NCBI GenBank assembly: GCA_002686315.1
Contig: NZBO01000003.1
Span: forward strand, 1 to 46,773
DNA from: an archaeon
Lineage (GTDB): Archaea > Nanobdellota > Nanobdellia > Woesearchaeales > GW2011-AR9
Direction: 5' to 3'
DNA: 46,773 nt
The first letter of the stretch is position 1. The number at the start of each line of letters is the position of its first letter. Position numbers and translations under genes: made by a program. Under the pieces are notes generated by a model. That model was not told the origin of the DNA, ran no database searches, and saw nothing but the letters and a program-made list of their open reading frames with translations. Of this stretch, positions 4,070 through 45,227 are shown in pieces.

Positions 4070-4417
4070 TGAGAAGTGAGGGGAAGAAATATTTAACTTA
4101 CTCTATTCCCCCTTGTATGGGTAGAAAAATAAAGAAAAAAAGGAAGCATTACGCTTCATAGAGGTGGTTTTTGTATAATAAATAGACTAATTCGTCCGTT
4201 GTTAAGCCTCGGACATGGCTGTGGAGGTCGTGTTTCATTCATATCACCCTTTATACACATACAAAACATTCCCTTTATTAATCACTTATGTATGACGATT
4301 ATAGAAGTATGAATTAGACCCATTTACCATAAACTTTTTAAACCCCTCTCTTGATTTGTTACTCATAAGTAAATTACGTGGAGGCGGGTTACAATATTTA
4401 GCTTATTTACGACACCA

Positions 4418-6270: not shown

Positions 6271-6278
6271 TTTTATAC
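6271..6278 (+). promoter_or_regulatory. TATA box (TTTTATAC) of rnhB, 22 nt upstream of ATG 6301
   Basis: Same TATA-to-start spacing as about 20 other genes in the window. It places the rnhB start at 6301, upstream of the 30-nt interruption. Confidence 0.5.
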
Positions 6279-6300: not shown

Positions 6301-6996
6301 ATGAACAAAAAGATTACTGTTGGGGTTGATGAAGCCGGTAGATCTAGCAACGCTTAGTTGTTAGAGCCGTGAGGTCCCGTCCTTGGCCCGTTAGTCATGG
6401 CAGCGATAGCGGTAGATGACAAAGCAGCGCAAAAACTGAAGTGGATGGGTGTGAAAGATTCTAAATTATTAACTGCAAGTGTGAGGGAAGATTTGTTTGA
6501 ACGTATCAAAGATGTTGTTGTTGATTTTCGTGTTGAAGTTATTGAACCAGATGCGATTGATCTTTCGTTAGCAGAATCAAATTTAAATTGGTTGGAAGCA
6601 GATACCTCTGCGCGAATGGTGTCAGAAATGAATCCAGATGTCATTGTGCTTGATTGTCCTTCTGTGAATATTCTCGCGTATAAGAATTATGTTGCGTCAA
6701 AATTGCCCCCTTCCGTGAAAAAGAAGGCACAATTAATTGTGGAACATAAAGCGGACGTGAATTATATCTCTGCTGCAGCTGCATCAATTGTTGCAAAAGT
6801 TATTCGTGATAAGTATATTGAGAACATTAAACGTGAGACGGGGATCGATTGTGGTTCTGGGTATCCATCGGATCCGAAGACGCAAAAGTTCTTACGTGAC
6901 TACCACGATCAGTATCCTGAGTATTTCAGACGAAAATGGAAATCGTATACCAACATGATTGAAAGTAAGAAGCAAATGAGTTTAGGTCAGTTCTAG
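6301..6996 (+). CDS. rnhB: Ribonuclease HII (type 2 RNase H), reading frame interrupted by a 30-nt insert (6342-6371); 221 aa if the insert is removed
   Basis: MNKKITVGVDEAGR (6301-6342), then 30 nt with in-frame TAG (6355) and TGA (6370), then GPVLGPLVMAAIAV in the same frame. Also DSKLL, HKAD..ISAAAASIVAK, GSGYPSD and a C-terminal PIP-like QMSLGQF. Confidence 0.85.
6342..6371 (+). other. Candidate bulge-helix-bulge (BHB) intron within the rnhB coding sequence
   Basis: Central 4-bp helix 6336-6339/6366-6369. 3-nt bulges AGA (6340-6342) and UGA (6370-6372). Inner 9-bp helix 6343-6351/6357-6365 with loop GCUUA. Excision restores DEAGRGPVLGPLV in frame. Confidence 0.6.
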
Positions 6997-7032: not shown

Positions 7033-7845
7033 ATGACAGTATTTACCAACGTTAACAAAAATGATCTTGACACCTTACGCGAGTTAGGATTTCATGATGA
7101 AGATCCTAAAACGATCTATGAAGTGGCGAGGTTACGAAAGAATAATATTTCTGTTGTCTACTATGAATCTCGTAAATTACTTATTCAAGGAAAGGAAGAT
7201 GCTATTAAGAAATTCTCGACAAAATTGCGTTCTCTTGGTATCGGTAAAGAAATGAAGAAAGAAGTGTTTCGAAAAGAGGAAGGATGGGTCATTGGGAGTG
7301 ACGAAACGTTGAAAGGAGATACGTTTGGCGGGCTTGTTGTTGCGAGTGTGAAAGCAGATGGAAAACTGCGAATTGAACTTATGGCCCTTGGCGTTGCGGA
7401 TAGTAAACGGTTGAAAGATGAAGAGATTATGGAAATGGCGTATAAGATTAAACGTCTTGTCCCTTGTGAAATACGTTCTGTCTTACCTGAAGAGTATAAC
7501 AAATATGATGGCGTGACACCGTTGTTAAATCGATTGCATAAAGAGTGTGGCGATTATCTTAAACCTGGAACGCATGTTGTTGACAAGTATCCTGGATGTA
7601 AAGTAGGTGATGTGCAAGAAACGAAAGCGGAATCCAAATATCTCGAAGTGGCGGCAGCGTCTGTTCTTGCTCGAGCGGCCGGGTTAGCGCAGATGCGTTT
7701 TTTATCAAAAGAAGCAGGATTTGATTTGCCGCTTGGAAGTACACATGTTTCTGATGCTTTAGAACGGTTGAAAGAAAGTGGGAAGGATTTCAGAAAGTTT
7801 ACCAAGATGCATTTTAGGAATGTTCGAGCCTTTCTTGAAAGGTGA
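7033..7845 (+). CDS. rnhC: Ribonuclease HIII-like protein (type 2 RNase H with an N-terminal substrate-binding domain)
   Basis: The N-terminal ~85 aa include VVYYESRKLLIQGKED, resembling the RNase HIII N-domain. Catalytic-type motifs GSDETLKGDTFGG, ADSKRL and TKAESKYLEVAAASVLAR (Glu in the KAE position, as in HIII). TATA 7005-7011 lies 21 nt upstream. Confidence 0.7.
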   Translation: MTVFTNVNKNDLDTLRELGFHDEDPKTIYEVARLRKNNISVVYYESRKLLIQGKEDAIKKFSTKLRSLGIGKEMKKEVFRKEEGWVIGSDETLKGDTFGGLVVASVKADGKLRIELMALGVADSKRLKDEEIMEMAYKIKRLVPCEIRSVLPEEYNKYDGVTPLLNRLHKECGDYLKPGTHVVDKYPGCKVGDVQETKAESKYLEVAAASVLARAAGLAQMRFLSKEAGFDLPLGSTHVSDALERLKESGKDFRKFTKMHFRNVRAFLER

Positions 7846-9137: not shown

Positions 9138-9989
9138 ATGCCAGACATGCCAGAGATGAGTGAAGAACAGCGAAAAGAGTTAGAGGAGAAACTCAAAAAC
9201 ATGTCGCCTGAAGAAATTGCGGAACTTCAAAAACAGCAATGTATCTTCTGTCAAATTGTGTCTGGGAAAATTCCGTCTAAAACAATTTATGATGATGATA
9301 AAGTTCTCGTAGTACTAGATATCAATCCTGCCACGAAAGGACATCTTCTTGTTATTCCTAAAACACATTATGCTATCATGCCGCAAATACCTGATGAAGA
9401 GTTAGGTCATTATTTTGTGGTGAGTAAATTTTTATCGCAACTACTTTTGAAGAATATGAAAGCGACTGGTACTAATTTGTTCATCGCGAATGGACAAGCG
9501 GCAGGTCAGCGAGCGCAACATTTCATGCTGCATATCATCCCGAGGAAAGATGGTGATGGTATTCTAGATGCAGAAAGTAAATTGATTGAAGCAGATATGG
9601 TCGCGAAAGTGATGGAAGGTGTCAAGCCAAAATTGTTTGAATTACTTGGTGTGAAGGAAGAAGTGCAGACGACATTAGAGAAAGATGAAGATGATGACAT
9701 TGAAGAGGAAACAGATGATTTAAGTGAGGAAGATGATAATTCAGAACCTGGAGAGGAAGATAATGATGAAAAGTCTGAAGATGAAGACCAAGAAACTCAA
9801 GAAAATGATGATTCTGAGGACGGTGTAGAAGATGATGAACAAGACGACTCCGAGGAATCAGAAAAAAATGATGAATCTGACGAAGATGAAGGTACGGAAG
9901 AAGAAGATTCAAACAAGAAACCTACTAAAGACAAACGGAAAGGAGGAGATGACGTGTCATTAGATGACATTGCGAATCTATTTCAATAA
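9138..9989 (+). CDS. HIT-superfamily protein with a degenerate histidine triad and a ~100-aa poly-acidic C-terminal tail
   Basis: CIFCQIVSGK, HLLVIPKTHY and GQRAQHFMLHIIPR (H-x-M-x-H where H-x-H-x-H is expected). The tail is rich in D/E/S. The ORF-track start 9123 overlaps the divergent gene; ATG 9138 fits the TATA spacing. Confidence 0.75.
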   Translation: MPDMPEMSEEQRKELEEKLKNMSPEEIAELQKQQCIFCQIVSGKIPSKTIYDDDKVLVVLDINPATKGHLLVIPKTHYAIMPQIPDEELGHYFVVSKFLSQLLLKNMKATGTNLFIANGQAAGQRAQHFMLHIIPRKDGDGILDAESKLIEADMVAKVMEGVKPKLFELLGVKEEVQTTLEKDEDDDIEEETDDLSEEDDNSEPGEEDNDEKSEDEDQETQENDDSEDGVEDDEQDDSEESEKNDESDEDEGTEEEDSNKKPTKDKRKGGDDVSLDDIANLFQ

Positions 9990-18427: not shown

Positions 18428-20323
18428 ATGAATACAACCGCCTTTCTTGCGTTATGTACAAGCAGAGGGTATTCCAGCGAGCAGAAAGGTATTTTTGGAC
18501 GAGCTATAACTGTCGCGAACTCCGTTTTACACGATAAAGAAAGGTTGGCGGGTGACACGTTCTTTGATCATAACCTCCGTGTTGCTGCCATATTAGCAGA
18601 AAATAAATCGGATCCTGACATTGTAACAACAGGGATTTTGAATGGTGTTTTAAAATATACAGGTAGCGCGTCGATTGTTGACCAGTTTGGGAAACCTATC
18701 GTCGAATTGCTTCATGGTGTGGAAGATATTAGCGCGATTAAAAGTAAAAATCCGCAACTTGAAGCTGATTCGTTACGTAAAATTTTGCTTACAACATTGA
18801 AAGATGTTCGTGTCATCATTGTCAAACTTGCATCCAAAGTTGAGAATTTACGTACCATCTCATCCCTTCCGGGAAGGCAGCAAAAAAAGATTGCGCAAGA
18901 TGTCCTTGACATATATGCACCTCTCGCAATGCGGCTTGGGTTAGATAAAATAAGAGTGCAATTGGAGGATTTAGCCTTTAGTGTACTTCATCCTAAGAAA
19001 TATGGCGAGATACGTAATTATATTGAAGAATCGAGGGAACAACGTGAACGAAATGTCGAGGAAGCATGTACACTTATTTCTTCTCTCGCGAAAGGAAAAG
19101 CGACAATTTTGAAGATCAAAGGACGGCCAAAACATATCTATAGTATTTTTAAAAAGATGAAAATACGTGGTGTAAAACTTGATCAACAATACGATTTACT
19201 GGGTATTCGAATCATTGTTAAATCGGTGAAAGATTGTTATACGTTACTTGGGTTACTTCATCAACACTTTCAGCCGATCCAAGGTAGGTTAAAAGATTAC
19301 ATTGCGAATCCAAAATCAAATTTCTATCAATCGTTGCATACCGGTGTGTTACTTCCAGGTACAAAACGACTCGAAATTCAAATTCGAACACCTGAAATGG
19401 ATGAGTTAGCGGAGGAAGGAATTGCTGCACATTGGCGATATAAGGGATTGAAGTCTGATGTTCTCTTCGAACGGAAAATGGCATGGCTAAAAGGTGTGCT
19501 TGATTTGCAAAAATCGGGGGAAAGTAAAGAGTTTCTTGAAACAGTGAAGGTAGACTTGTTTGGCGATAAAATTCATTGTTACACACCTAAAGGAGATGTC
19601 AAAGAGTTACCGAAAGATGCAACGCTTCTTGATTTTGCGTTTAGCATTCATGAAGATATTGGGAGTCATGCAGTTGGTGGGCGTGTAAATGGAAAATTCG
19701 TACCAATCAAGAAGAAGTTGGAAGCAGGAGATATCGTTGAAATCATCACAAACAAAAATCAACGTCCAAGGAGAAGCTGGATTAAGATTGTGACATCATC
19801 TAAGAGCAGGCAACGAATCAGGAAAGCGTTGAAACAATATGAATCACTTCCTGCATTTTATTACCGGCGGTTAAAACCTGTCGTGAAAGAAGAACTTGGT
19901 TTATTAGTTGAATCTGAAGAATTTCCGAACGCGATGTGTATCTTAGCGAAATGTTGCAAACCATTACCTGGTTCTGAGATAGTTGGCATATTAACGAAGA
20001 AAAGAATAATATCATCACATTCTCAGACATGCAGACATGTTGAGAAAGAGCAAAATAGATGGGTGCCTGTCCAGTGGAAAAATTCGTTCAACCAGCAAAT
20101 TCAGTTTTGTGTGGAAGCAGGGGAGCGAAGCGGGTTATTGGCAGATTTATTGCACACAATTGCACAAGCTGGTTTTGAGATTAAAGAAGCGAAAGCGAAA
20201 TTACTTGATTCTTATAATGCCCAGTGTTCTTTCACGGTTATTCCTCGAGATCTGGAACAATTACAAGAAATGGTTGGTCGTGTTAAGAAAGTGAAGGGCG
20301 TTAAGAAGATGTATTTTGAGTGA
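18428..20323 (+). CDS. Long RelA/SpoT homologue: pseudo-hydrolase, (p)ppGpp synthetase, TGS and ACT domains
   Basis: Synthetase motifs GRPKHIYSIFKKM, YDLLGIRIIV, DYIANPKSNFYQSLHT and EIQIRTPEMDELAEEGIAAHWRYK. TGS IHCYTPKGDVKELPKDATLLDFAFSIH. C-terminal ACT-like GLLADLLHTIAQAGFEI. The hydrolase HD motif is replaced (ILNGVLKYT). Confidence 0.85.
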   Translation: MNTTAFLALCTSRGYSSEQKGIFGRAITVANSVLHDKERLAGDTFFDHNLRVAAILAENKSDPDIVTTGILNGVLKYTGSASIVDQFGKPIVELLHGVEDISAIKSKNPQLEADSLRKILLTTLKDVRVIIVKLASKVENLRTISSLPGRQQKKIAQDVLDIYAPLAMRLGLDKIRVQLEDLAFSVLHPKKYGEIRNYIEESREQRERNVEEACTLISSLAKGKATILKIKGRPKHIYSIFKKMKIRGVKLDQQYDLLGIRIIVKSVKDCYTLLGLLHQHFQPIQGRLKDYIANPKSNFYQSLHTGVLLPGTKRLEIQIRTPEMDELAEEGIAAHWRYKGLKSDVLFERKMAWLKGVLDLQKSGESKEFLETVKVDLFGDKIHCYTPKGDVKELPKDATLLDFAFSIHEDIGSHAVGGRVNGKFVPIKKKLEAGDIVEIITNKNQRPRRSWIKIVTSSKSRQRIRKALKQYESLPAFYYRRLKPVVKEELGLLVESEEFPNAMCILAKCCKPLPGSEIVGILTKKRIISSHSQTCRHVEKEQNRWVPVQWKNSFNQQIQFCVEAGERSGLLADLLHTIAQAGFEIKEAKAKLLDSYNAQCSFTVIPRDLEQLQEMVGRVKKVKGVKKMYFE

Positions 20324-21871: not shown

Positions 21872-21916
21872 TTGAGTTTAACAATCTATTTATACTTGTC
21901 TTTCTTGTTGGTTTTT

Positions 21917-22576
21917 ATGGATCGAAATCACCCTTTATTTCCTGCATTATCGACGTTAGTGCAAACAGGATTTAAGACTCCTATGTTACAACAAATTTTG
22001 ATGGCCGCGCAAGGTGATGATAGGTTAGTGCTGACGGTGGAGCGATTTCAACCTGGACTTGAAATTCCTGGAAGCAATAGCGATGTAGGGATACGAGTTT
22101 TTGCTGATAAAAGCGGTGCTTTTTATCATGGTTTGATTCAAGATCGGTCAGGTATGCGTTCTGTGTATGATGCGCAGTTTCATCCAGTAGCAGACAGGAT
22201 GCCAGATATTACGTATGAAGTATTTCAACAAAATAGTGGAAATACGACTAACCCAATCTATCTGCTTGAAAAAAGTTCTTTTGATTCTCCTGACCCAATT
22301 CGCGTTGGAACACAAGGAAGAGAATCAGAATTAATTGTAGGTCCATCAGGTGGAACAACCGCCTTTTCATTCCAACATGAAGGAAGAGATCAATTTGAAG
22401 ACCCTTCATTGCGTGCAACGTTCTATGACCGACGAGTGAGATTACAGATAGATCATGTTCCTCCTCAAGAAGGTACTTTGGTGGTTGATTTTTATCCTAT
22501 CTGTAATAGTGCACCAGATTTACCATATCTCTCGGGGAAAGAAGTTTTTTCTATATTGGATCGAGGCGAGCGATAA
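21917..22576 (+). CDS. Hypothetical protein (219 aa)
   Basis: The ORF track starts at TTG 21872. ATG 21917 (MDRNHPLF...) lies 22 nt after TATTTATA (21887-21894). No recognised domain. Confidence 0.5.
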   Translation: MDRNHPLFPALSTLVQTGFKTPMLQQILMAAQGDDRLVLTVERFQPGLEIPGSNSDVGIRVFADKSGAFYHGLIQDRSGMRSVYDAQFHPVADRMPDITYEVFQQNSGNTTNPIYLLEKSSFDSPDPIRVGTQGRESELIVGPSGGTTAFSFQHEGRDQFEDPSLRATFYDRRVRLQIDHVPPQEGTLVVDFYPICNSAPDLPYLSGKEVFSILDRGER

Positions 22577-22607
22577 GTATTTTAAAGGAACTCTCTTTTT
22601 ACTATAC

Positions 22608-23558
22608 ATGTCAAAATTAACTCCAATACCATCATCACAGTACCCTCCGTTTAAACCTAAATTTATCGAGAGATATTCACAACTAACTGATTGGGAAGCA
22701 TTCAAAAAGTATTCTCTCTGCTTTCTACGAAGGTCTATCAGATTAAATCCACTGACTGCAGATCCAAGCAAAACAAAGAGTTCAATCGAAGCAAAAGGAT
22801 GGAAACTTGATCCAATTCCATGGAATCCATTAGGCTTTTGGATATCGCACCCTGATAGAAAAGATGTGGGTAATTTGTTAGAACATCATTTAGGTAAAAT
22901 ATATGTGCAAGAAGCAGCTTCAATGATCCCGCCGTTGGTATTACAACCACAACCAAATGATATCGTGCTAGACATGTGCGCGTCTCCCGGTTCAAAAACA
23001 ACGCAAATGGCAGCTATGATGGAGAATACGGGTTTGTTAATTGCGAATGATTACAAGGGGATGAGGTTACAATCACTTGGAATTAATTTACAACGAAGCG
23101 GGTTAACAAACACAGTCTTAACGTTATTGGATGGTACCAAATTTCGTGATTTTCAATTTGATAAAATTCTTGTAGATGCACCGTGTTCAGGAACCGGAAC
23201 CATTCGAAAAAGTTTGAAAACCATCACGATGTGGAATGCAGGGATGATTACAAAACTTGCAAAACAGCAAAAAAAGTTACTCGAAAATGCCTTTAAAAAT
23301 TTGAAAGAAGGTGGTGAATTAGTGTATTCTACTTGTTCCGTTGAACCTGAGGAAGATGAAGGGGTCGTTGATTTTCTTATCAAAAAATATGATAATGCGG
23401 AAATTGTACCTGTGAAACTACCTGGTTTGAAAACATCACCACCAATCATGTCGTTTAATGGCGTGGAGTATCACGAATCACTAAAACATTCGTTGAGAAT
23501 CTGGCCGCAAGATAATGATACGGAAGGTTTTTTTGTGTGTAAAGTGAGGAAAAAGTGA
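22608..23558 (+). CDS. NOL1/NOP2/Sun-family RNA (cytosine-C5)-methyltransferase
   Basis: DMCASPGSKT (SAM motif I), DAPCSGTG (motif IV Pro-Cys) and YSTCSVEPEE (motif VI Thr-Cys). The start moves to ATG 22608, 21 nt after TATTTTAAA (22578-22586). Confidence 0.85.
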   Translation: MSKLTPIPSSQYPPFKPKFIERYSQLTDWEAFKKYSLCFLRRSIRLNPLTADPSKTKSSIEAKGWKLDPIPWNPLGFWISHPDRKDVGNLLEHHLGKIYVQEAASMIPPLVLQPQPNDIVLDMCASPGSKTTQMAAMMENTGLLIANDYKGMRLQSLGINLQRSGLTNTVLTLLDGTKFRDFQFDKILVDAPCSGTGTIRKSLKTITMWNAGMITKLAKQQKKLLENAFKNLKEGGELVYSTCSVEPEEDEGVVDFLIKKYDNAEIVPVKLPGLKTSPPIMSFNGVEYHESLKHSLRIWPQDNDTEGFFVCKVRKK

Positions 23559-26067: not shown

Positions 26068-26310
26068 ATGTTAGAAGAATTTGTTGGTGGGGCTGTATCT
26101 GTTGAGTATGTCGCACGTAGACCATCGCGAAAACATTGTTCAGGTACACTTCTTTTTTCATACGATGGTGATTTTTCTCGTATTGCCGTTCGTGCAGTAG
26201 ATAATGGTATTTACATCATACCATATAATTCAATATTGAAAATGATGCTTAACGCTCCAACACTTCTTCCCGATCAACATGCACAATCTTTGACGGACGT
26301 GCTTCCTTAG
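26068..26310 (+). CDS. Possible small protein (80 aa), weakly supported
   Basis: It fills an otherwise unexplained 197-nt gap between convergent stops in a genome where such genes usually abut. There is no properly spaced TATA box or SD, and its last 62 nt run antisense to the YrdC gene. Confidence 0.25.
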   Translation: MLEEFVGGAVSVEYVARRPSRKHCSGTLLFSYDGDFSRIAVRAVDNGIYIIPYNSILKMMLNAPTLLPDQHAQSLTDVLP

Positions 26311-33660: not shown

Positions 33661-33719
33661 TTCTTTTTTAGAAATTTCAAAAGGTATGGTTCTCAGAATA
33701 ATGAGTGGGCCCAGCCGGA

Positions 33720-33737
33720 CTTTCGCTTGATTAAAGT
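33720..33737 (-). other. tRNA-Val intron 2 (18 nt, T-loop position 59/60)
   Basis: ACTTTAATCAAGCGAAAG. T54-G57 (TTCG) pairs with intron CGAA. Bulges AG|A and AG|U. Inner helix CUU/AAG. The mature T-loop is TTCGAGT. Confidence 0.8.
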
Positions 33738-33759
33738 CTCGAACCGGCGATCAATGCCT

Positions 33760-33776
33760 CACTTATCCTTACGGAA
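33760..33776 (-). other. tRNA-Val intron 1 (17 nt, canonical position 37/38)
   Basis: TTCCGTAAGGATAAGTG. Central helix C32-A35 pairs with intron TAAG. Bulges CA|U and UG|A. Inner 3-bp helix capped by GUAA. Confidence 0.85.
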
Positions 33777-33913
33777 TGTAAGGGCACTGTCATAGCCACT
33801 AGACCATGGGCCCACATGAACCTGTTTCTGAAGGTTATTTATTAAGGTTTTGGTGGTACGTTCCTTTTTTTAAGTCACAACGTTTTTAAATCAATTTTAT
33901 CTTCTTTGATGAG

Positions 33914-40360: not shown

Positions 40361-43300
40361 TTACTTACGTCGTAGCAATACTGCCATTGCAAGTAACATT
40401 GCAATGAAGGTTAACACAACTAATCCGCCAAGTAAGCCAACATACATGTTACTGTCACGGAAGGATGTAACAACTTTCTTGTTACTTGGTTGCTCCACTG
40501 CTTGTGCCTGCGCCGTTGATGCTTGCAACATTCTATTCAACTCTGCTTGCAGCTGTGCCACACGATCTTGTCCCGTGAACGAGTTTTGACCCTGCGATGC
40601 TGTTTGCGATGCTACTGGAGCACTTCCACCACATTCTGCAATGGTAAGTGTGACGGTTTCTGTTTCTTCATGGTCACCATCATTGTACAACTCAACATTG
40701 ATTGGGTAACTACCTGCTGGTTTTCCTGTAAAGTCAAGACGGAATGTTTCACGTTCGTCGTTGTTGTTATCTGTGTATTCTTCGATATCAATCTCATCTC
40801 GGACAAGATTTAACCCAAGTTCACTGTTTGTAACGCGAACTTCCACTTCATCTTCGCTACTTTCACCTTCATTCTTGATGATCACTTCAACATTTGTTTG
40901 TCGTGAACACTGCAATGAGGTTGCAGATAACGAGACTCGTGAGAACACAACTTTATGTCGTTCTAAGTCAAGTTTTCCTGTAAATGTTTCCACAGTTCTA
41001 TACTCAACATTGTTCTCGTCTTCACCAACAACTTCCACGATGACCTCAAACGTTTCTGAATCCATGTCTTCGCCGCTTAAATCAAATTCAATTTTGAAAT
41101 CTTGATCATCGCCAGCATCAACATCTTCCTCGTCGCTTGATTCGTCTTTATCATCACCATCAACGTCGATGGTAACAGTTACTTCAACATCTTCCAAATC
41201 AACTGCAAGATTGTTGGTAATCTCAACTTCAATGTCGGATGATTCACTAATAGAGAAATCATCGCCATCGTTTACTTCGAACTTCGTAATTTCAAGTAAA
41301 CTTTGCGTGTCGAGGAAAATCTCTGAACTGTCTTCAAGCGCTTCACCAGCATTCTCGCCCGTTACTTTAAGCGTACCAATGCTATGTCGTCCGCCATCTT
41401 CGTTCTCTGGAACGTCAATTTGTAATTGCACGGTTGTTGATGCGCCAGGTCCTAACGGATCTGCAAGGTTACCAACAATTGTTGCACCGTATTTCGCGTC
41501 AACATTTTCAAGCGCAATTGCAAGATTTGTAATTGCATCACTTGAACCTGTGTTTGTAACGGTTACGTCAACTGTTTGATCTTCTGCACCTAAGTTTACA
41601 TTATCGAACTCAATCGCACTTACTGATAATGCTGCTTCCTGTGCTTCGCCAACAACGTATTCACTAAACCCTGTTACGGTAAAGACAAATGTGCCTTCTG
41701 CAGGATCTGCAACAATTTCACAGACATTCGCTGCACACAATTCACCATCACGTGTAATGACTGGATTTTCAAACGTGTTTTGTAACGTGATTCGCGCTCT
41801 CTCGTTTAAACCAGGAGCTGTTTCTGAATCTACATTAACACTTGTGCTTGTAATTGTGACAACTGCGCTAAGATCCACAATTTCGGAAATGTCAACAGCA
41901 TTAAGCCATTCAATCTTTCCATTGTTGGTTTCAAGCGTAAATCCGTTCACGCTTGTTGGATCTGCCACAGCTGCAATCTCAGTTGTCTCATCGCCTGCAA
42001 AGGAATCTTCACCAAGTGGTCGATCGATGATGGTAACTTCCCACGTTCGTGAAATCTCTTCATCTTCTCCTTCGTTAACAAGAACTTTCAGTTCGTATGT
42101 TCCGACTTCTAATGGATCATCACCAGCTGCGCTTAGTGTGATATCTTCATTATTGTTATTCAAATCAACAGGATCATTGTTGCCATCAAGGTCACGTAAT
42201 GTCCATGTGTACTCTACTGCAATGTCATCGGGATTCTGTACTTCAACAGTAAACGTTTGTTCTTGCTGATCTTCGAAATGTGCGTGAAGTGTCACGTCAC
42301 CTGCTGGTGATACATCGCCAAACGCAAGTCCTTCATCTGCAAGTTGATTCACAACAATGTTAAATTGAACTGGTGTTTCGTCAATGCCATCGCTAACAAG
42401 AAGTGTGACACGTTCCGTCTCACCATCTGCACTGAAAAAGTTTGCGTCAGGTACGATTCGAAGTGTTGTACCATCTAATGAAGTACCTGATACATCTTCA
42501 TCAACTTCACCAAGTGCAAACAAGAGGTCATGACCTTCTACATCAGTAAACTGACCATCTAACTCAATTTCTAACGTTTCATCTTCATCAACATCATACT
42601 CTTCTAAAGGAAATCCAACAACTGCTTCCGGTGCACAATTTGCAACAGTAATGTCGATTGTTTCTGTTCCATAGACTCGAGGAGGTAAATGTGTATTAAA
42701 TGCACGGACAGTAAGCTGTTGATCTCCCGTCATGTTTTCAAGATTAAGCATCTGTGCAACTTGTAGTTCATCAACTCCATCGTCAAGCGTGACGTCACTT
42801 GTTACAAGAAGATCATCTCCATGTAACACTTGTACTGTCACATCTTGCGCTCCTGCAACTCCTGCATTTGCAAGATCTGTTCGAACTTGAATCTGCGCTT
42901 GTTTACGATCACACGTGATTGGCTGCTCAACATCAAGTGCTGTTGCAACTAACCGTATATCGTTTGGCCGAAGGTCGACATCTAAATCAATACTAATGGA
43001 TGATGTGTACTCGTGTCTGTCTAAATCAGCTCCACTTACACTAAAGGTAACACGATGTTGACCATCTTCTGTATCGAGAGGAATCTGGTATTGTAAATTG
43101 AATGTTTCTCTCTCGCCAGCGTTGAGGAATATTGGTCCATTGGGACCGTCAACGACTTCTGGAAAAGCCTCCCCTAATGCTTCGTCAGCTTGTGGCTCAA
43201 CTCCTACAGCGACAATAATAGGCTCTTCACCATTATCAATTAATTCGTGATGTTCTGCTGTATACTTATTTTGTACCGTAACTTGGAAGACTACTGTATC

Positions 43301-43756
43301 GCCTGGAACAAACTCTTCAGTTGTATTTCCGTCTTGGTATGCTACAAGATTTCCTCCTTGCTTCCCAACACGCAAGTCTACAACGTCAAGTACAGGGAGT
43401 ACGTTGATGGTAAAACTTGCATCGCTATTTTCATCGTCATCATTTACATCGATAACTCGTACCGTAACGTCTGCATTTTCTTCTCCTGCATCTGCCACTA
43501 TCCTGATTTCATCTCCGTTAACATTGACGTTTTCAAATCCTTCATCATCGGCTATTGTGAACCTAAATTCATCACCATCAGCGTCACTTCCAGTAACGGC
43601 GATAATTGTTTCTATTCCTTCAATTACATCAACTATAATTTCGTCTGCTACATCTTGGCCATCAATAGTTTCAATCACTGGTACATCTGCAAGTGCAGAC
43701 GTCATGCTTAAAACCATTACCATGATAAGCAATAATCCTTTGATTTTTTGTATCAT
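40361..43756 (-). CDS. Giant acidic cell-surface protein (1131 aa): signal peptide, multiple Ig/CARDB-like modules, C-terminal TM anchor
   Basis: N-terminal LLLIMVMVLSMTSALA, repetitive beta-rich D/E/T/V-rich modules, and C-terminal VGLLGGLVVLTFIAMLLAMAVLLRRK. Confidence 0.75.
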   Translation of the reverse strand: MIQKIKGLLLIMVMVLSMTSALADVPVIETIDGQDVADEIIVDVIEGIETIIAVTGSDADGDEFRFTIADDEGFENVNVNGDEIRIVADAGEENADVTVRVIDVNDDDENSDASFTINVLPVLDVVDLRVGKQGGNLVAYQDGNTTEEFVPGDTVVFQVTVQNKYTAEHHELIDNGEEPIIVAVGVEPQADEALGEAFPEVVDGPNGPIFLNAGERETFNLQYQIPLDTEDGQHRVTFSVSGADLDRHEYTSSISIDLDVDLRPNDIRLVATALDVEQPITCDRKQAQIQVRTDLANAGVAGAQDVTVQVLHGDDLLVTSDVTLDDGVDELQVAQMLNLENMTGDQQLTVRAFNTHLPPRVYGTETIDITVANCAPEAVVGFPLEEYDVDEDETLEIELDGQFTDVEGHDLLFALGEVDEDVSGTSLDGTTLRIVPDANFFSADGETERVTLLVSDGIDETPVQFNIVVNQLADEGLAFGDVSPAGDVTLHAHFEDQQEQTFTVEVQNPDDIAVEYTWTLRDLDGNNDPVDLNNNNEDITLSAAGDDPLEVGTYELKVLVNEGEDEEISRTWEVTIIDRPLGEDSFAGDETTEIAAVADPTSVNGFTLETNNGKIEWLNAVDISEIVDLSAVVTITSTSVNVDSETAPGLNERARITLQNTFENPVITRDGELCAANVCEIVADPAEGTFVFTVTGFSEYVVGEAQEAALSVSAIEFDNVNLGAEDQTVDVTVTNTGSSDAITNLAIALENVDAKYGATIVGNLADPLGPGASTTVQLQIDVPENEDGGRHSIGTLKVTGENAGEALEDSSEIFLDTQSLLEITKFEVNDGDDFSISESSDIEVEITNNLAVDLEDVEVTVTIDVDGDDKDESSDEEDVDAGDDQDFKIEFDLSGEDMDSETFEVIVEVVGEDENNVEYRTVETFTGKLDLERHKVVFSRVSLSATSLQCSRQTNVEVIIKNEGESSEDEVEVRVTNSELGLNLVRDEIDIEEYTDNNNDERETFRLDFTGKPAGSYPINVELYNDGDHEETETVTLTIAECGGSAPVASQTASQGQNSFTGQDRVAQLQAELNRMLQASTAQAQAVEQPSNKKVVTSFRDSNMYVGLLGGLVVLTFIAMLLAMAVLLRRK

Positions 43757-43778
43757 TTTGTTAGTCTCCCTATCTCTC

Positions 43779-45227
43779 TTATTTTTTTATTAATATCATG
43801 AAAAACAATCCAATCATGGCAACAACTAAGACAACTGCTACAATGATCCCACCAATAAAGAGATCTTCAATGGTGTATGGATCTTCAATTGATTGTGGTA
43901 CAACTGCACTTCCTGTTACGGAATTTGTCTCGGTGCTTGCTTCCGGCTCTTCATTTGAATCAGTTCCTGCTGCTGGTTCTGTTGTTTCTGCAGATTGTGT
44001 TGGCTGTGTTGGCGTTCTGTTTGGTCGCACAACCGGTGTTGGTGCTGCTGAAGGACATGCTTCTACTACAAGTTCAATTCTTTTGAAATCCTGCGTTTCA
44101 TCACGATCAATGAACACATTTGCATCGACATTGTACGTTTTCGCTGTCAGGCCTGCCGGGACTGTATAGGTAATACTTCGTCGCCAGGTATCATCTTCAT
44201 CAAATTCTTCTAATGCGAAATCAGGGAAATTTTCACTAATGTCAAGATCTGCGTTTTCAACGGTAACTACTGTGTGGTCTTGATCATCTGTTCCAAAATT
44301 TTGAATTTCAAGATCGAGTGTGTAGGTGTTTCCTTCACATGCCTGAACTGTTGCTGGTGAGAATCGTGTTTGTGTAAATCGAACGTCATCTTTTTCTCGT
44401 TTCAATTCAAGTTTAACTTTCCGTTCAATTTCATAGTCAACATCTTTCCCATCTTCGCCTGTAAGCTTGAACTCAAGATTGTAATCTCCTGAATTTGCAT
44501 CTTCTGGAATGGTGAACCGTACGGTGATTTCGTCCTTTTTATCGGCTTTGATATCGCTAAAATCATAGGTGTCTGTGAAATCACTTGGGAAAATGTCGTC
44601 ATCATCTGCATCGATTTCAATCTCGATTTTTTCAAGTTCAGATTCGTCATAATCATCGTTATCAAACAAATTTTCAACCTCAAATGTTAAGATTAATTCT
44701 GTTCCAGGTTTCACATCATTATCAAGCGTGAAACTTGTTTCGGTTTGTGCATCAAAATCATCATCACGGTTTTTTCCATCTTCATCAACATAATCTACGG
44801 TGATTTCTTTAAATGAAAGCATGTTCAATGTATTTTGAACGAGGGGAGCGGTTACTGTATTGCTTGCTTCCAATTTAATGGTACCAATAGAAGATCTACC
44901 TGGATTCTTGTCATGCGGTGCCTCAATGTTGAATTCAACTTGCGTACTTGCACCAGCTGCTACTGTCACTTCTTGGTTTGCAGATCGATAATCACCTGGT
45001 AATCCTTCCGCGCTAATTGTGATAATTTCTTCTGCATCGCCGTTATTTGTTATGGTAAATGCATTTGTTGTTTCTATGATACGTTCTTCATCTTCTTCAT
45101 CAAATTTAGAATAGTCAACTTCTACAAGAAGATCGCCGTTGTCTAATCCGTCTGTAATTTCAATATTTGCTGATACCGTAACTGCTAATAGAACGAGTAC
45201 AAGCAAAGGTGTTAATAGTTGCTTCAT
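43779..45227 (-). CDS. Acidic cell-surface protein (482 aa), paralogue of the downstream giant protein; Pro/Thr-rich stalk and C-terminal TM anchor
   Basis: Signal peptide LLTPLLVLVLLAVTVSA, modules alignable to the 1131-aa protein, stalk PSAAPTPVVRPNRTPTQPTQSAETTEP, and anchor FIGGIIVAVVLVVAMIGLFFMILIKK. Confidence 0.75.
   Translation of the reverse strand: MKQLLTPLLVLVLLAVTVSANIEITDGLDNGDLLVEVDYSKFDEEDEERIIETTNAFTITNNGDAEEIITISAEGLPGDYRSANQEVTVAAGASTQVEFNIEAPHDKNPGRSSIGTIKLEASNTVTAPLVQNTLNMLSFKEITVDYVDEDGKNRDDDFDAQTETSFTLDNDVKPGTELILTFEVENLFDNDDYDESELEKIEIEIDADDDDIFPSDFTDTYDFSDIKADKKDEITVRFTIPEDANSGDYNLEFKLTGEDGKDVDYEIERKVKLELKREKDDVRFTQTRFSPATVQACEGNTYTLDLEIQNFGTDDQDHTVVTVENADLDISENFPDFALEEFDEDDTWRRSITYTVPAGLTAKTYNVDANVFIDRDETQDFKRIELVVEACPSAAPTPVVRPNRTPTQPTQSAETTEPAAGTDSNEEPEASTETNSVTGSAVVPQSIEDPYTIEDLFIGGIIVAVVLVVAMIGLFFMILIKK

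Follow-up and report, generated by a model that had tools for sequence, protein, structure and literature searches.

How can an archaeal gene for ribonuclease HII (rnhB) yield an active enzyme when its catalytic motif is split by a 30-nt insert that brings two in-frame stop codons? This question is raised by a 46,773-nt contig from a marine Woesearchaeota-type archaeon of the DPANN group, and the RNase HII proteins closest to its own carry the label Candidatus Woesearchaeota or Nanoarchaeota. The whole contig is called the window here. The comparative evidence presented below indicates that the insert is very probably a bulge-helix-bulge (BHB) intron of the rnhB pre-mRNA; EndA, the splicing endonuclease, would excise it, and the ligase RtcB would join the exons. 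The coordinates of the gene, of the parts of the predicted intron, and of a tRNA gene used for comparison are collected in Table 1.

In frame 1, positions 6301-6996 translate as MNKKITVGVDEAGR, followed by SSNA, a stop, LLEP, a second stop, and then GPVLGPLVMAAIAV and onward to the terminal TAG at 6994-6996. The two codons TAG 6355-6357 and TGA 6370-6372 are the sole in-frame stops before the end of rnhB. When positions 6342-6371 were deleted in silico, a protein of 221 aa was obtained in which the DEAGRGP motif is restored. This protein matches PF01351 (RNase_HII) over positions 1-197 of 199 (E 1e-44), and the match is full-length only without the 30 nt. It also matches TIGR00729, the equivalog model of archaeal RNase HII, over positions 2-204 of 207 with 184 bits (cut-off 123.3). 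Residues 7-218 align with RNase HII of P. horikoshii and T. kodakarensis (PDB 1UAX and 1IO2), and the alignment spans GVDEAGRGPVIGPLV, which corresponds to the stretch GVDEAGRGPV(I/L)GPLV. The distance of the TATA-like box from the start codon is echoed in 57 intron-bearing rnhB relatives, in which TATA-like hexamers are most frequent between −31 and −27 relative to the ATG; this spacing implies that the rnhB transcript would be leaderless or would carry a very short leader. The initial annotation of this locus had proposed the start at ATG 6301, the reading frame, both stops, a correctly placed TATA box at 6271-6278, and the recreation of the RNase HII motif by removal of the insert. Its coordinates agree with the sequence throughout, and the two full-length model matches bear out the restored motif.

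Table 1. Positions of the rnhB gene, its predicted BHB intron, and the tRNA-Val gene in the window
Feature	Position	Strand	Details
TATA-like box TTTTATAC	6271..6278	+	From the sequence; 30 nt before the ATG; putative promoter
rnhB exon 1	6301..6341	+	MNKKITVGVDEAG plus AG of the Arg codon; catalytic Asp10-Glu11
Central helix H, 5′ strand CGGU	6336..6339	+	Exonic (Ala codon base 3 and Gly codon); partner 6366-6369
5′ bulge AGA	6340..6342	+	Predicted cut after G6341, by the canonical BHB rule
BHB intron (predicted), 30 nt	6342..6371	+	In-frame TAG 6355 and TGA 6370
Inner hairpin h′	6343..6365	+	9 bp, 6343-6351/6357-6365, one G-U pair; loop GCUUA 6352-6356
Helix H, 3′ strand GCCG	6366..6369	+	Intronic
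3′ bulge UGA	6370..6372	+	Predicted cut after G6371; A6372 would be Arg codon base 3 after splicing
rnhB exon 2	6372..6996	+	Arg codon base 3, GPVLGPLV… to QMSLGQF, stop TAG 6994-6996
tRNA-Val(UAC)	33705..33813	−	Two strict BHB introns; found by an intergenic GC scan and manual parsing

The insert is present in the DNA of this population. Five other assemblies, produced by different pipelines, contain the identical 160 nt around it, namely NCBI DUHL01000009.1 (a GenBank contig of a metagenome-assembled genome, MAG), ENA ERZ909131, Logan ERR594346, ENA ERZ840571, and CEPZ01075935.1 (Tara). These five contigs share 99.95-100% identity with the window over 1.8-5.6 kb and belong to the same population. 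The source samples include TARA_039 of Tara Oceans (mesopelagic, 0.1-0.22 µm), and runs such as ERR594346 are metagenomic. An assembly or sequencing artefact, or a palindromic DNA element without any RNA processing, might be suspected, since errors can occur in MAG contigs and the insert forms an almost perfect hairpin. We regard this explanation as scarcely credible. Since the identical insert occurs in five independent assemblies, it is not an artefact, and misassembly, which the initial annotation had named as a way to refute its proposal, came out negative. The hairpin has a single copy within the window; therefore, it is not a dispersed repeat. Moreover, homologous inserts are found at one codon position across phylum-level diversity, as described below.

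The insert and its flanks form two 3-nt bulges on opposite strands, with a 4-bp helix, at both boundaries, which is the arrangement that defines a BHB motif. All base pairs, bulges, and the GCUUA loop that had been listed at the outset were found in the sequence as described. The insert was shuffled 1,000,000 times, with the register set by the frame-restoring junction. All four pairs of the central helix H were retained in 3.6% of the shuffles, at least five inner pairs were formed in addition in a fraction of 4e-4, and the observed combination of four plus nine pairs was reached in 1e-5. A search of the insert region against Rfam gave no match, either at the gathering score or at E ≤ 1. Group I or group II introns and inteins were also considered for the insert and were ruled out by the size (30 nt here and 24-47 nt in relatives), by the stops and frameshifts, and by the lack of an Rfam match.

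Inserts at the same site were found in many relatives. A GTDB scan with one genome per species, followed by tblastn and translation, gave 80 rnhB loci. Most of them have an intact DE(A/S)GRGP motif, and 11 are interrupted (L029, L030, L048, L055, L057, which is identical to L059, L058, L061, L064, L079, L084, and the window). Their inserts measure 29-45 nt and occupy one site and one codon phase, with …GGN AG before the insert and A GGN CCN… after it. Locus L079 belongs to a complete genome, CP066683.1, and freshwater and groundwater loci include L105/L061, L146, and CP066683.1. A metagenome collection (JGI/ENA) was then scanned with a pattern in which the exon letters were fixed and 24-54 free bases were allowed between them, and at least 120 contigs matched. 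Among the metagenome matches listed, 94 lie in an rnhB context, with GP(V/I)xGP…KDSK downstream, and 26 are chance matches, which served as an internal control. Homologous introns at the identical site are thus present in at least 105 loci (11 from GTDB and 94 from metagenomes), and the GTDB loci and listed metagenome matches contain 96 distinct introns of 24-47 nt. Their length is not a multiple of three in 55 cases, and each of the 96 either shifts the frame or holds an in-frame stop; therefore, the insert must be removed. Excision restores Gly-Arg-Gly-Pro, and with it the DE(A/S)GRGP motif, in 96/96. The 5′ bulge is AGA in 68 of these introns, AGU in 24, and AGC in 4.

These lengths also bear on translational recoding, in which the ribosome would bypass or read through the insert without RNA splicing, as in T4 gene 60 and the mitochondrial byp elements. 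The shortness of the insert, the early stop past the take-off site, and the stable hairpin resemble the bypass element of gene 60, and the window insert is a multiple of three. However, the 55 introns that are not multiples of three do not fit this explanation, and neither does the use of two kinds of stop, TAG and TGA. Bypass needs matching take-off and landing codons, whereas the flanking Gly codons differ (GGA…GGC in L029, L030, L055, and L058), and landing on a Gly codon would drop Arg-Gly from the invariant DEAGRGP. In addition, bypass does not predict a conserved 3-4-3 BHB motif (bulge, helix, bulge) in which the exon pairs with the intron. We consider recoding extremely unlikely.

Further evidence for an RNA intron is the pairing across the splice boundaries. 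In the rnhB introns, helix H joins intron positions L-5 to L-2 to exon bases −6 to −3, which comprise the Gly codon and the preceding base, the last of the Ala/Ser codon; the inner helix begins right after the 5′ bulge. Among the metagenome matches listed, all four H pairs are present in 86 of the 94 rnhB introns and in 1 of the 26 chance matches. We built a gap-free alignment (A2) of 94 distinct boundary sequences in 43 columns, in which the exon letters are partly fixed by the search pattern. The BHB core is paired in 93.2% of the cells of A2, compared with 63.9% after partner shuffling. The covariation score is 0.785 against 0.203 in the shuffled alignments, and 0 of 500 shuffles reach 0.785. 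When the 3′ partners were slid by 1-3 columns, pairing fell to 28-51% and covariation to at most 0.18. Helix H (columns 9-12/28-31) is 97.6% paired, and its two variable pairs use six and five standard pair types, respectively. The inner helix h′ is 91% paired, with double changes on both sides at 6/6 tested pairs. RNAalifold, applied only to the 18 introns that are 30 nt long, flanks included, gave ........((((...(((((((((.....)))))))))))))............, that is, an H helix of 4 bp, a 3-nt 5′ bulge, a 9-bp h′, and an unpaired 3′ side, with compensatory changes at 11 of the 13 pairs. The 3-4-3 structure first read from a single sequence is therefore kept by compensatory change across 94 sequences, and RNAalifold concurs. 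Synonymous positions of the exon covary with the intron, which argues for a constraint at the RNA level and against a DNA element.

The exons themselves are well preserved. In the relatives, exon 1 typically has an in-frame start and a length of 11-13 codons. The Asp is preceded by four residues that lie outside the search pattern, and these are hydrophobic, hydrophobic, Gly/Ala, and aliphatic in 83-84 of 84 loci, and the same beta-1 pattern occurs in 3-10 of 24 chance controls. Of the 82 intron-bearing loci whose sequence extends as far as a stop, 81 have an ORF of 202-282 codons downstream of the Arg codon. The proteins of the intron-bearing relatives are 35-70% identical to that of the window, with a median of 44%. 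These patterns indicate that both exons are under purifying selection across deep divergence, and such selection is understandable only for exons that become joined.

The same data bear on the proposal that rnhB is a decaying pseudogene, inactivated by the 30-bp insertion and dispensable because of an adjacent RNase HIII-like gene. That neighbour lies directly downstream at 7033-7845 (+) and encodes an RNase_HII domain and a weak DUF3378 N-terminal domain; its product scores 127 bits against TIGR00716 rnhC, below the cut-off of 161. In favour of decay are the two in-frame stops, the type-2 RNase H paralogue next door, and the database annotation, which retains just a 199-aa remnant. However, there is no further lesion across the 696 nt, more than 100 divergent genes are interrupted at the same site, 81/82 downstream ORFs (open reading frames) are full length, exon 1 is constrained at the protein level, and compensatory changes keep the intron helices. 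Random decay predicts none of these features. A search for additional lesions, which the initial annotation had offered as a test for a pseudogene, was negative, and we judge decay to be very unlikely. Tandem type-2 RNase H paralogues are themselves unusual for a reduced DPANN genome.

A further alternative is that the mRNA retains the insert and that the 199-aa protein starting at Met 6397 is the functional one, the upstream 41 nt and the hairpin serving as a 5′ leader or regulatory element. This is exactly the ORF that gene callers and NCBI annotate as "ribonuclease HII" (HIJ10459.1 and MAG72722.1), and the same truncated annotation is likely in the 100 or more intron-bearing homologues. However, alignment with the solved archaeal enzymes confirms the early suspicion that this product lacks the catalytic Asp: Asp10-Glu11, which it does not contain, are the first two catalytic residues of archaeal RNase HII. 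It also leaves unexplained why there is an in-frame ATG 11-13 codons upstream, why the upstream segment encodes hydrophobic-x-G-x-DE(A/S)G in every lineage, and why DE(A/S)GRGP is regained on every excision. Position 6397 is not preceded by a Shine-Dalgarno-like sequence. A 199-aa functional product is very unlikely, and a spliced pre-mRNA intron remains the preferred explanation.

The distribution of the intron is patchy, as a comparison of related rnhB genes reveals: the insert is present at the same site in some genomes and absent from others, with covarying helices where it occurs. When the GTDB loci were placed in a neighbour-joining tree, the genes with the intron were interspersed with genes that lack it; L029 is placed by L013 and L018, L057 by L046, and L084 by the Aenigmatarchaeota loci L081-L083. 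The intron-bearing records carry the labels Woesearchaeota/Nanoarchaeota and Aenigmatarchaeota. The Arg codon of the GTDB intron-bearing alleles is always AG|A in the sense that the intron follows AG and precedes A, whereas the intronless alleles use AGA (22), AGG (12), CGN (30), or Lys codons (4). Two histories agree with this pattern: an old intron that was repeatedly and precisely lost, or insertions that recurred at a single site. The rnhB intron family is old or mobile within DPANN archaea, occupying one site and phase in many divergent lineages, and has been precisely lost or never gained in others. Two observations concern the records used for this comparison. L057 and L059 are two different MAG records and are identical over the approximately 390 nt of the rnhB region compared. 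L029, L016-L020, L022, L032-L034, and others bear the title "uncultured Methanosarcinales archaeon", and their rnhB is of the Woesearchaeota type with 57-68% identity to the window; therefore, these titles look unreliable.

The window itself contains a second kind of disrupted gene. The GC-richest intergenic stretch, 33705-33813, encodes a tRNA-Val with two introns. Intron 1 (17 nt, 33776 to 33760) lies at position 37/38, and its helix H is CUUA:UAAG with bulges CAU and UGA. Intron 2 (18 nt, 33737 to 33720) lies in the T-loop at 59/60, and its H is UUCG:CGAA with bulges AGA and AGU; the T-stem forms its outer helix. ARAGORN calls a canonical 74-nt tRNA-Val(tac) only when the introns are removed, and removal of the T-loop intron by hand was decisive. 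On the intact contig, no tRNA was found by ARAGORN (default or -i), by Rfam (gathering score or E ≤ 1), or by a strict T-arm regular expression, and ARAGORN at lowered thresholds gave 73-139 noise calls without resolving this tRNA. Both introns had been proposed before, with the same 3-4-3 geometry as the rnhB insert, and the tRNA call obtained after their removal shows that they are real. This organism must have an endonuclease able to act at sites other than the anticodon loop, and the gene shows that the genome depends on BHB splicing, also at a non-canonical position.

Several points weigh against splicing of rnhB. The spliced 221-aa protein is absent from the protein collection searched, in which an exact look-up returned the 199-aa form only. 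The RNase HIII-like neighbour could in principle relax the need for RNase HII. In the metagenome set, the exon letters were fixed by the pattern and related sequences were included, and the counts are therefore not numbers of independent events. Energy calculations do not single out the proposed register. The unconstrained minimum free energy (MFE) structure of 6321-6392 (−25.4 kcal/mol, z −2.1) is a slightly shifted variant with a 3-bp H, a 4-nt 3′ bulge, and GCC/GGU pairing, and among the 96 introns from GTDB and the listed metagenome matches, the MFE structure has the exact BHB in 28 and at least three H pairs in 65. Since the MFE misses the exact BHB in most homologues, the register is decided by the comparative signal and not by the energy model. 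The outer exon-exon helix (h) is weak, with C6335-G6373 as its only pair. The alternative outer pairings GAUG/YRUY and GC/GN are approximately 87% paired, which equals the shuffled value, and they show no covariation beyond composition, because these letters are fixed by coding. With a weak h and a solid h′ of 9 bp, the motif is best placed in the relaxed HBh′ class rather than in the strict hBHBh′ class, as had been suggested from the first inspection, and relaxed HBh′ motifs are poorly cleaved by strict EndAs (PMC5829648). Finally, Pfam scans found neither EndA nor RtcB on the 46.8-kb contig; that the host encodes an EndA and an RNA ligase is supported indirectly by the tRNA-Val, from which two BHB introns have to be removed.

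The enzyme required for such a motif deserves a comment. The initial annotation held that cleavage of relaxed BHB motifs needs heterotetrameric or epsilon-type EndA. This should be widened to include alpha4 enzymes with an L3 loop in DPANN archaea: diverse DPANN lineages have alpha4 EndAs with an extra L3 loop, and these are associated with many disrupted tRNA genes (PMC5829648). A tblastn search for EndA in approximately 1.2 Mb of fetched loci, made with an approximate query sequence, gave spurious matches only. The whole window was also scanned for BHB motifs in general (H of 4 bp, at least five inner pairs, and an ORF-rescue filter), which proved too unspecific to find further split genes, as it yielded approximately 1,000 raw matches per strand and hundreds of "rescues".

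We propose the following pathway for rnhB. Transcription would probably begin at or just before ATG 6301, and the first ~72 nt of the transcript would fold into the HBh′ motif. By analogy with the biochemistry of archaeal BHB motifs, EndA would cut after the second base of each bulge, that is, after G6341 and G6371. A ligase of the RtcB type would then join 6341 to 6372, so that the spliced junction would read GAAGCCGGTAG^AGGTCCCGTCC, with GGU-AGA-GGU encoding Gly-Arg-Gly in an mRNA for the 221-aa RNase HII. The 30-nt intron would be released, probably as a circle. The unspliced RNA would yield only an 18-residue peptide, and a truncated protein from Met 6397 would be devoid of the catalytic Asp10/Glu11.

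A bolder proposal is that this is an ancient DPANN-wide intron, kept or homing at the DEAGRGP site, through which the production of active RNase HII is gated by EndA and RtcB as a counterpart of HAC1/XBP1. We regard it as speculative and rather unlikely. If it were true, the removal of ribonucleotides and RNA primers from DNA would be coupled to the state of the RNA-processing machinery. As a corollary, mRNA splicing by EndA would be regular in DPANN archaea, and other conserved genes that appear "truncated" would hide introns.

Other features of the window are as follows. The contig carries genes for TFB and ribosomal protein S8e. A gene at 18428-20323 (+) encodes a 631-aa long RelA/SpoT-type protein with the domains HD_4, RelA_SpoT, TGS, and ACT. 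Long enzymes of this type are mainly bacterial, and the gene suggests horizontal acquisition. Two ORFs at 21872-22576 and 22455-23558 (+) overlap by approximately 120 nt in different frames. The latter encodes an RNA methyltransferase of the RsmB/F type, with domains starting from residue 69, and the former has no Pfam match. The overlap may be genuine, or it may reflect a frameshift or a further hidden interruption. At 40361-45227 (−), adjacent genes encode proteins of 1131 aa and 482 aa with weak matches to Ig-like/NPCBM_assoc domains and to a Nup98-type autopeptidase (S59), and these are probably surface proteins. A match to the C/D-box small RNA family sR52 of Rfam at 9750-9810 (+), inside an ORF for a HIT/DcpS-like protein, scores 24.9 bits (E 0.39), whereas the gathering score is 50, and is probably due to chance. 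Two intergenic stretches of 60 nt, 4193-4252 and 26086-26145, reach 50% G+C compared with 39% for the genome. Neither received an RNA family or tRNA assignment, and both may represent small RNAs or additional RNA genes that are disrupted.

For two decades, splicing of archaeal mRNA has essentially meant one gene, cbf5 of some Crenarchaeota. The BHB intron in the pre-mRNA of cbf5, the gene for the pseudouridine synthase aCBF5, is the closest precedent for the rnhB insert (Watanabe et al. 2002; Yokobori et al. 2009, PMC2738675), and splicing was confirmed for no other gene at that time (PMC2738675). In 2020, "one mRNA" with a BHB motif was listed, and a site in the 5′ untranslated region (UTR) of HVO_1309 of Haloferax volcanii was added (PMC7714728). 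An EndA paper of 2018 and a structural paper of 2025 cite only the cbf5 work with regard to pre-mRNA. We found no earlier description of an rnhB intron in the open-access full-text literature, in agreement with the first impression that none had been reported, although a description elsewhere is possible. The rnhB family would be only the second family of archaeal protein genes with a BHB intron. Its presence in more than 100 divergent DPANN lineages would mean that mRNA splicing by EndA and RtcB is no crenarchaeal oddity, and it would also untie the splicing of protein transcripts from heterotetrameric EndA. For DPANN endonucleases, it offers a natural mRNA substrate that is short and open to testing. 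Why the intron should persist in organisms with minimal genomes, inside a catalytic motif and 41 nt from the beginning of what is probably a leaderless mRNA, is a question that follows. The intron further exposes a systematic annotation error, in that public records list this gene as a 199-aa RNase HII without the catalytic Asp-Glu. Standard tRNA finders miss tRNAs with T-loop introns such as that of tRNA-Val, which bears on the counts of "missing tRNAs" in DPANN genomes.

Compared with known systems, rnhB would share with HVO_1309 an mRNA as the substrate of the archaeal splicing endonuclease; however, the HVO_1309 site is located in the 5′-UTR, interrupts no protein motif, and has been described for one species only (PMC7714728). 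The likeness to cbf5 goes further. Both are short BHB introns in the ORF of an archaeal protein, often with a relaxed motif and with patchy gain and loss; both lead to genes mis-annotated as truncated or frameshifted, and cleavage by EndA followed by ligation is presumed for both. They differ in host, since the rnhB intron is found in DPANN archaea and that of cbf5 in Desulfurococcales and Sulfolobales, where the EndA of Crenarchaeota is heterotetrameric. The rnhB intron is also distinguished by its position 41 nt from the start codon and inside the catalytic motif, and by the kind of evidence: splicing of cbf5 was shown experimentally, whereas that of rnhB is deduced from covariation.

Pre-tRNA introns, including those of the tRNA-Val in the window, resemble the rnhB intron in the succession of a 3-nt bulge, a 4-bp helix, and a 3-nt bulge, with a predicted cut after the second bulge base. 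Their sizes are similar (17 and 18 nt in tRNA-Val and 30 nt in rnhB), and the two genes even have bulges in common, AGA with the T-loop intron and UGA with the anticodon intron. In the tRNA, however, the anticodon stem or T-stem provides a solid outer helix (hBHBh′), whereas rnhB has an outer helix of at most 1 bp with weak, coding-fixed pairing (HBh′). The rnhB substrate is moreover an mRNA, and its junction must preserve the reading frame. Outside the archaea, the mRNAs of HAC1 and XBP1 are cut at twin stem-loops by the endonuclease Ire1 and joined by tRNA ligase or RtcB; the XBP1 intron has 26 nt, and the reaction is regulated by stress. In these mRNAs, as proposed for rnhB, a small intron is removed independently of the spliceosome by a protein endonuclease and a tRNA ligase, and the product of the ORF is changed. 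The difference lies in recognition and control, since Ire1 reads twin stem-loops instead of a BHB motif and acts there under stress regulation.

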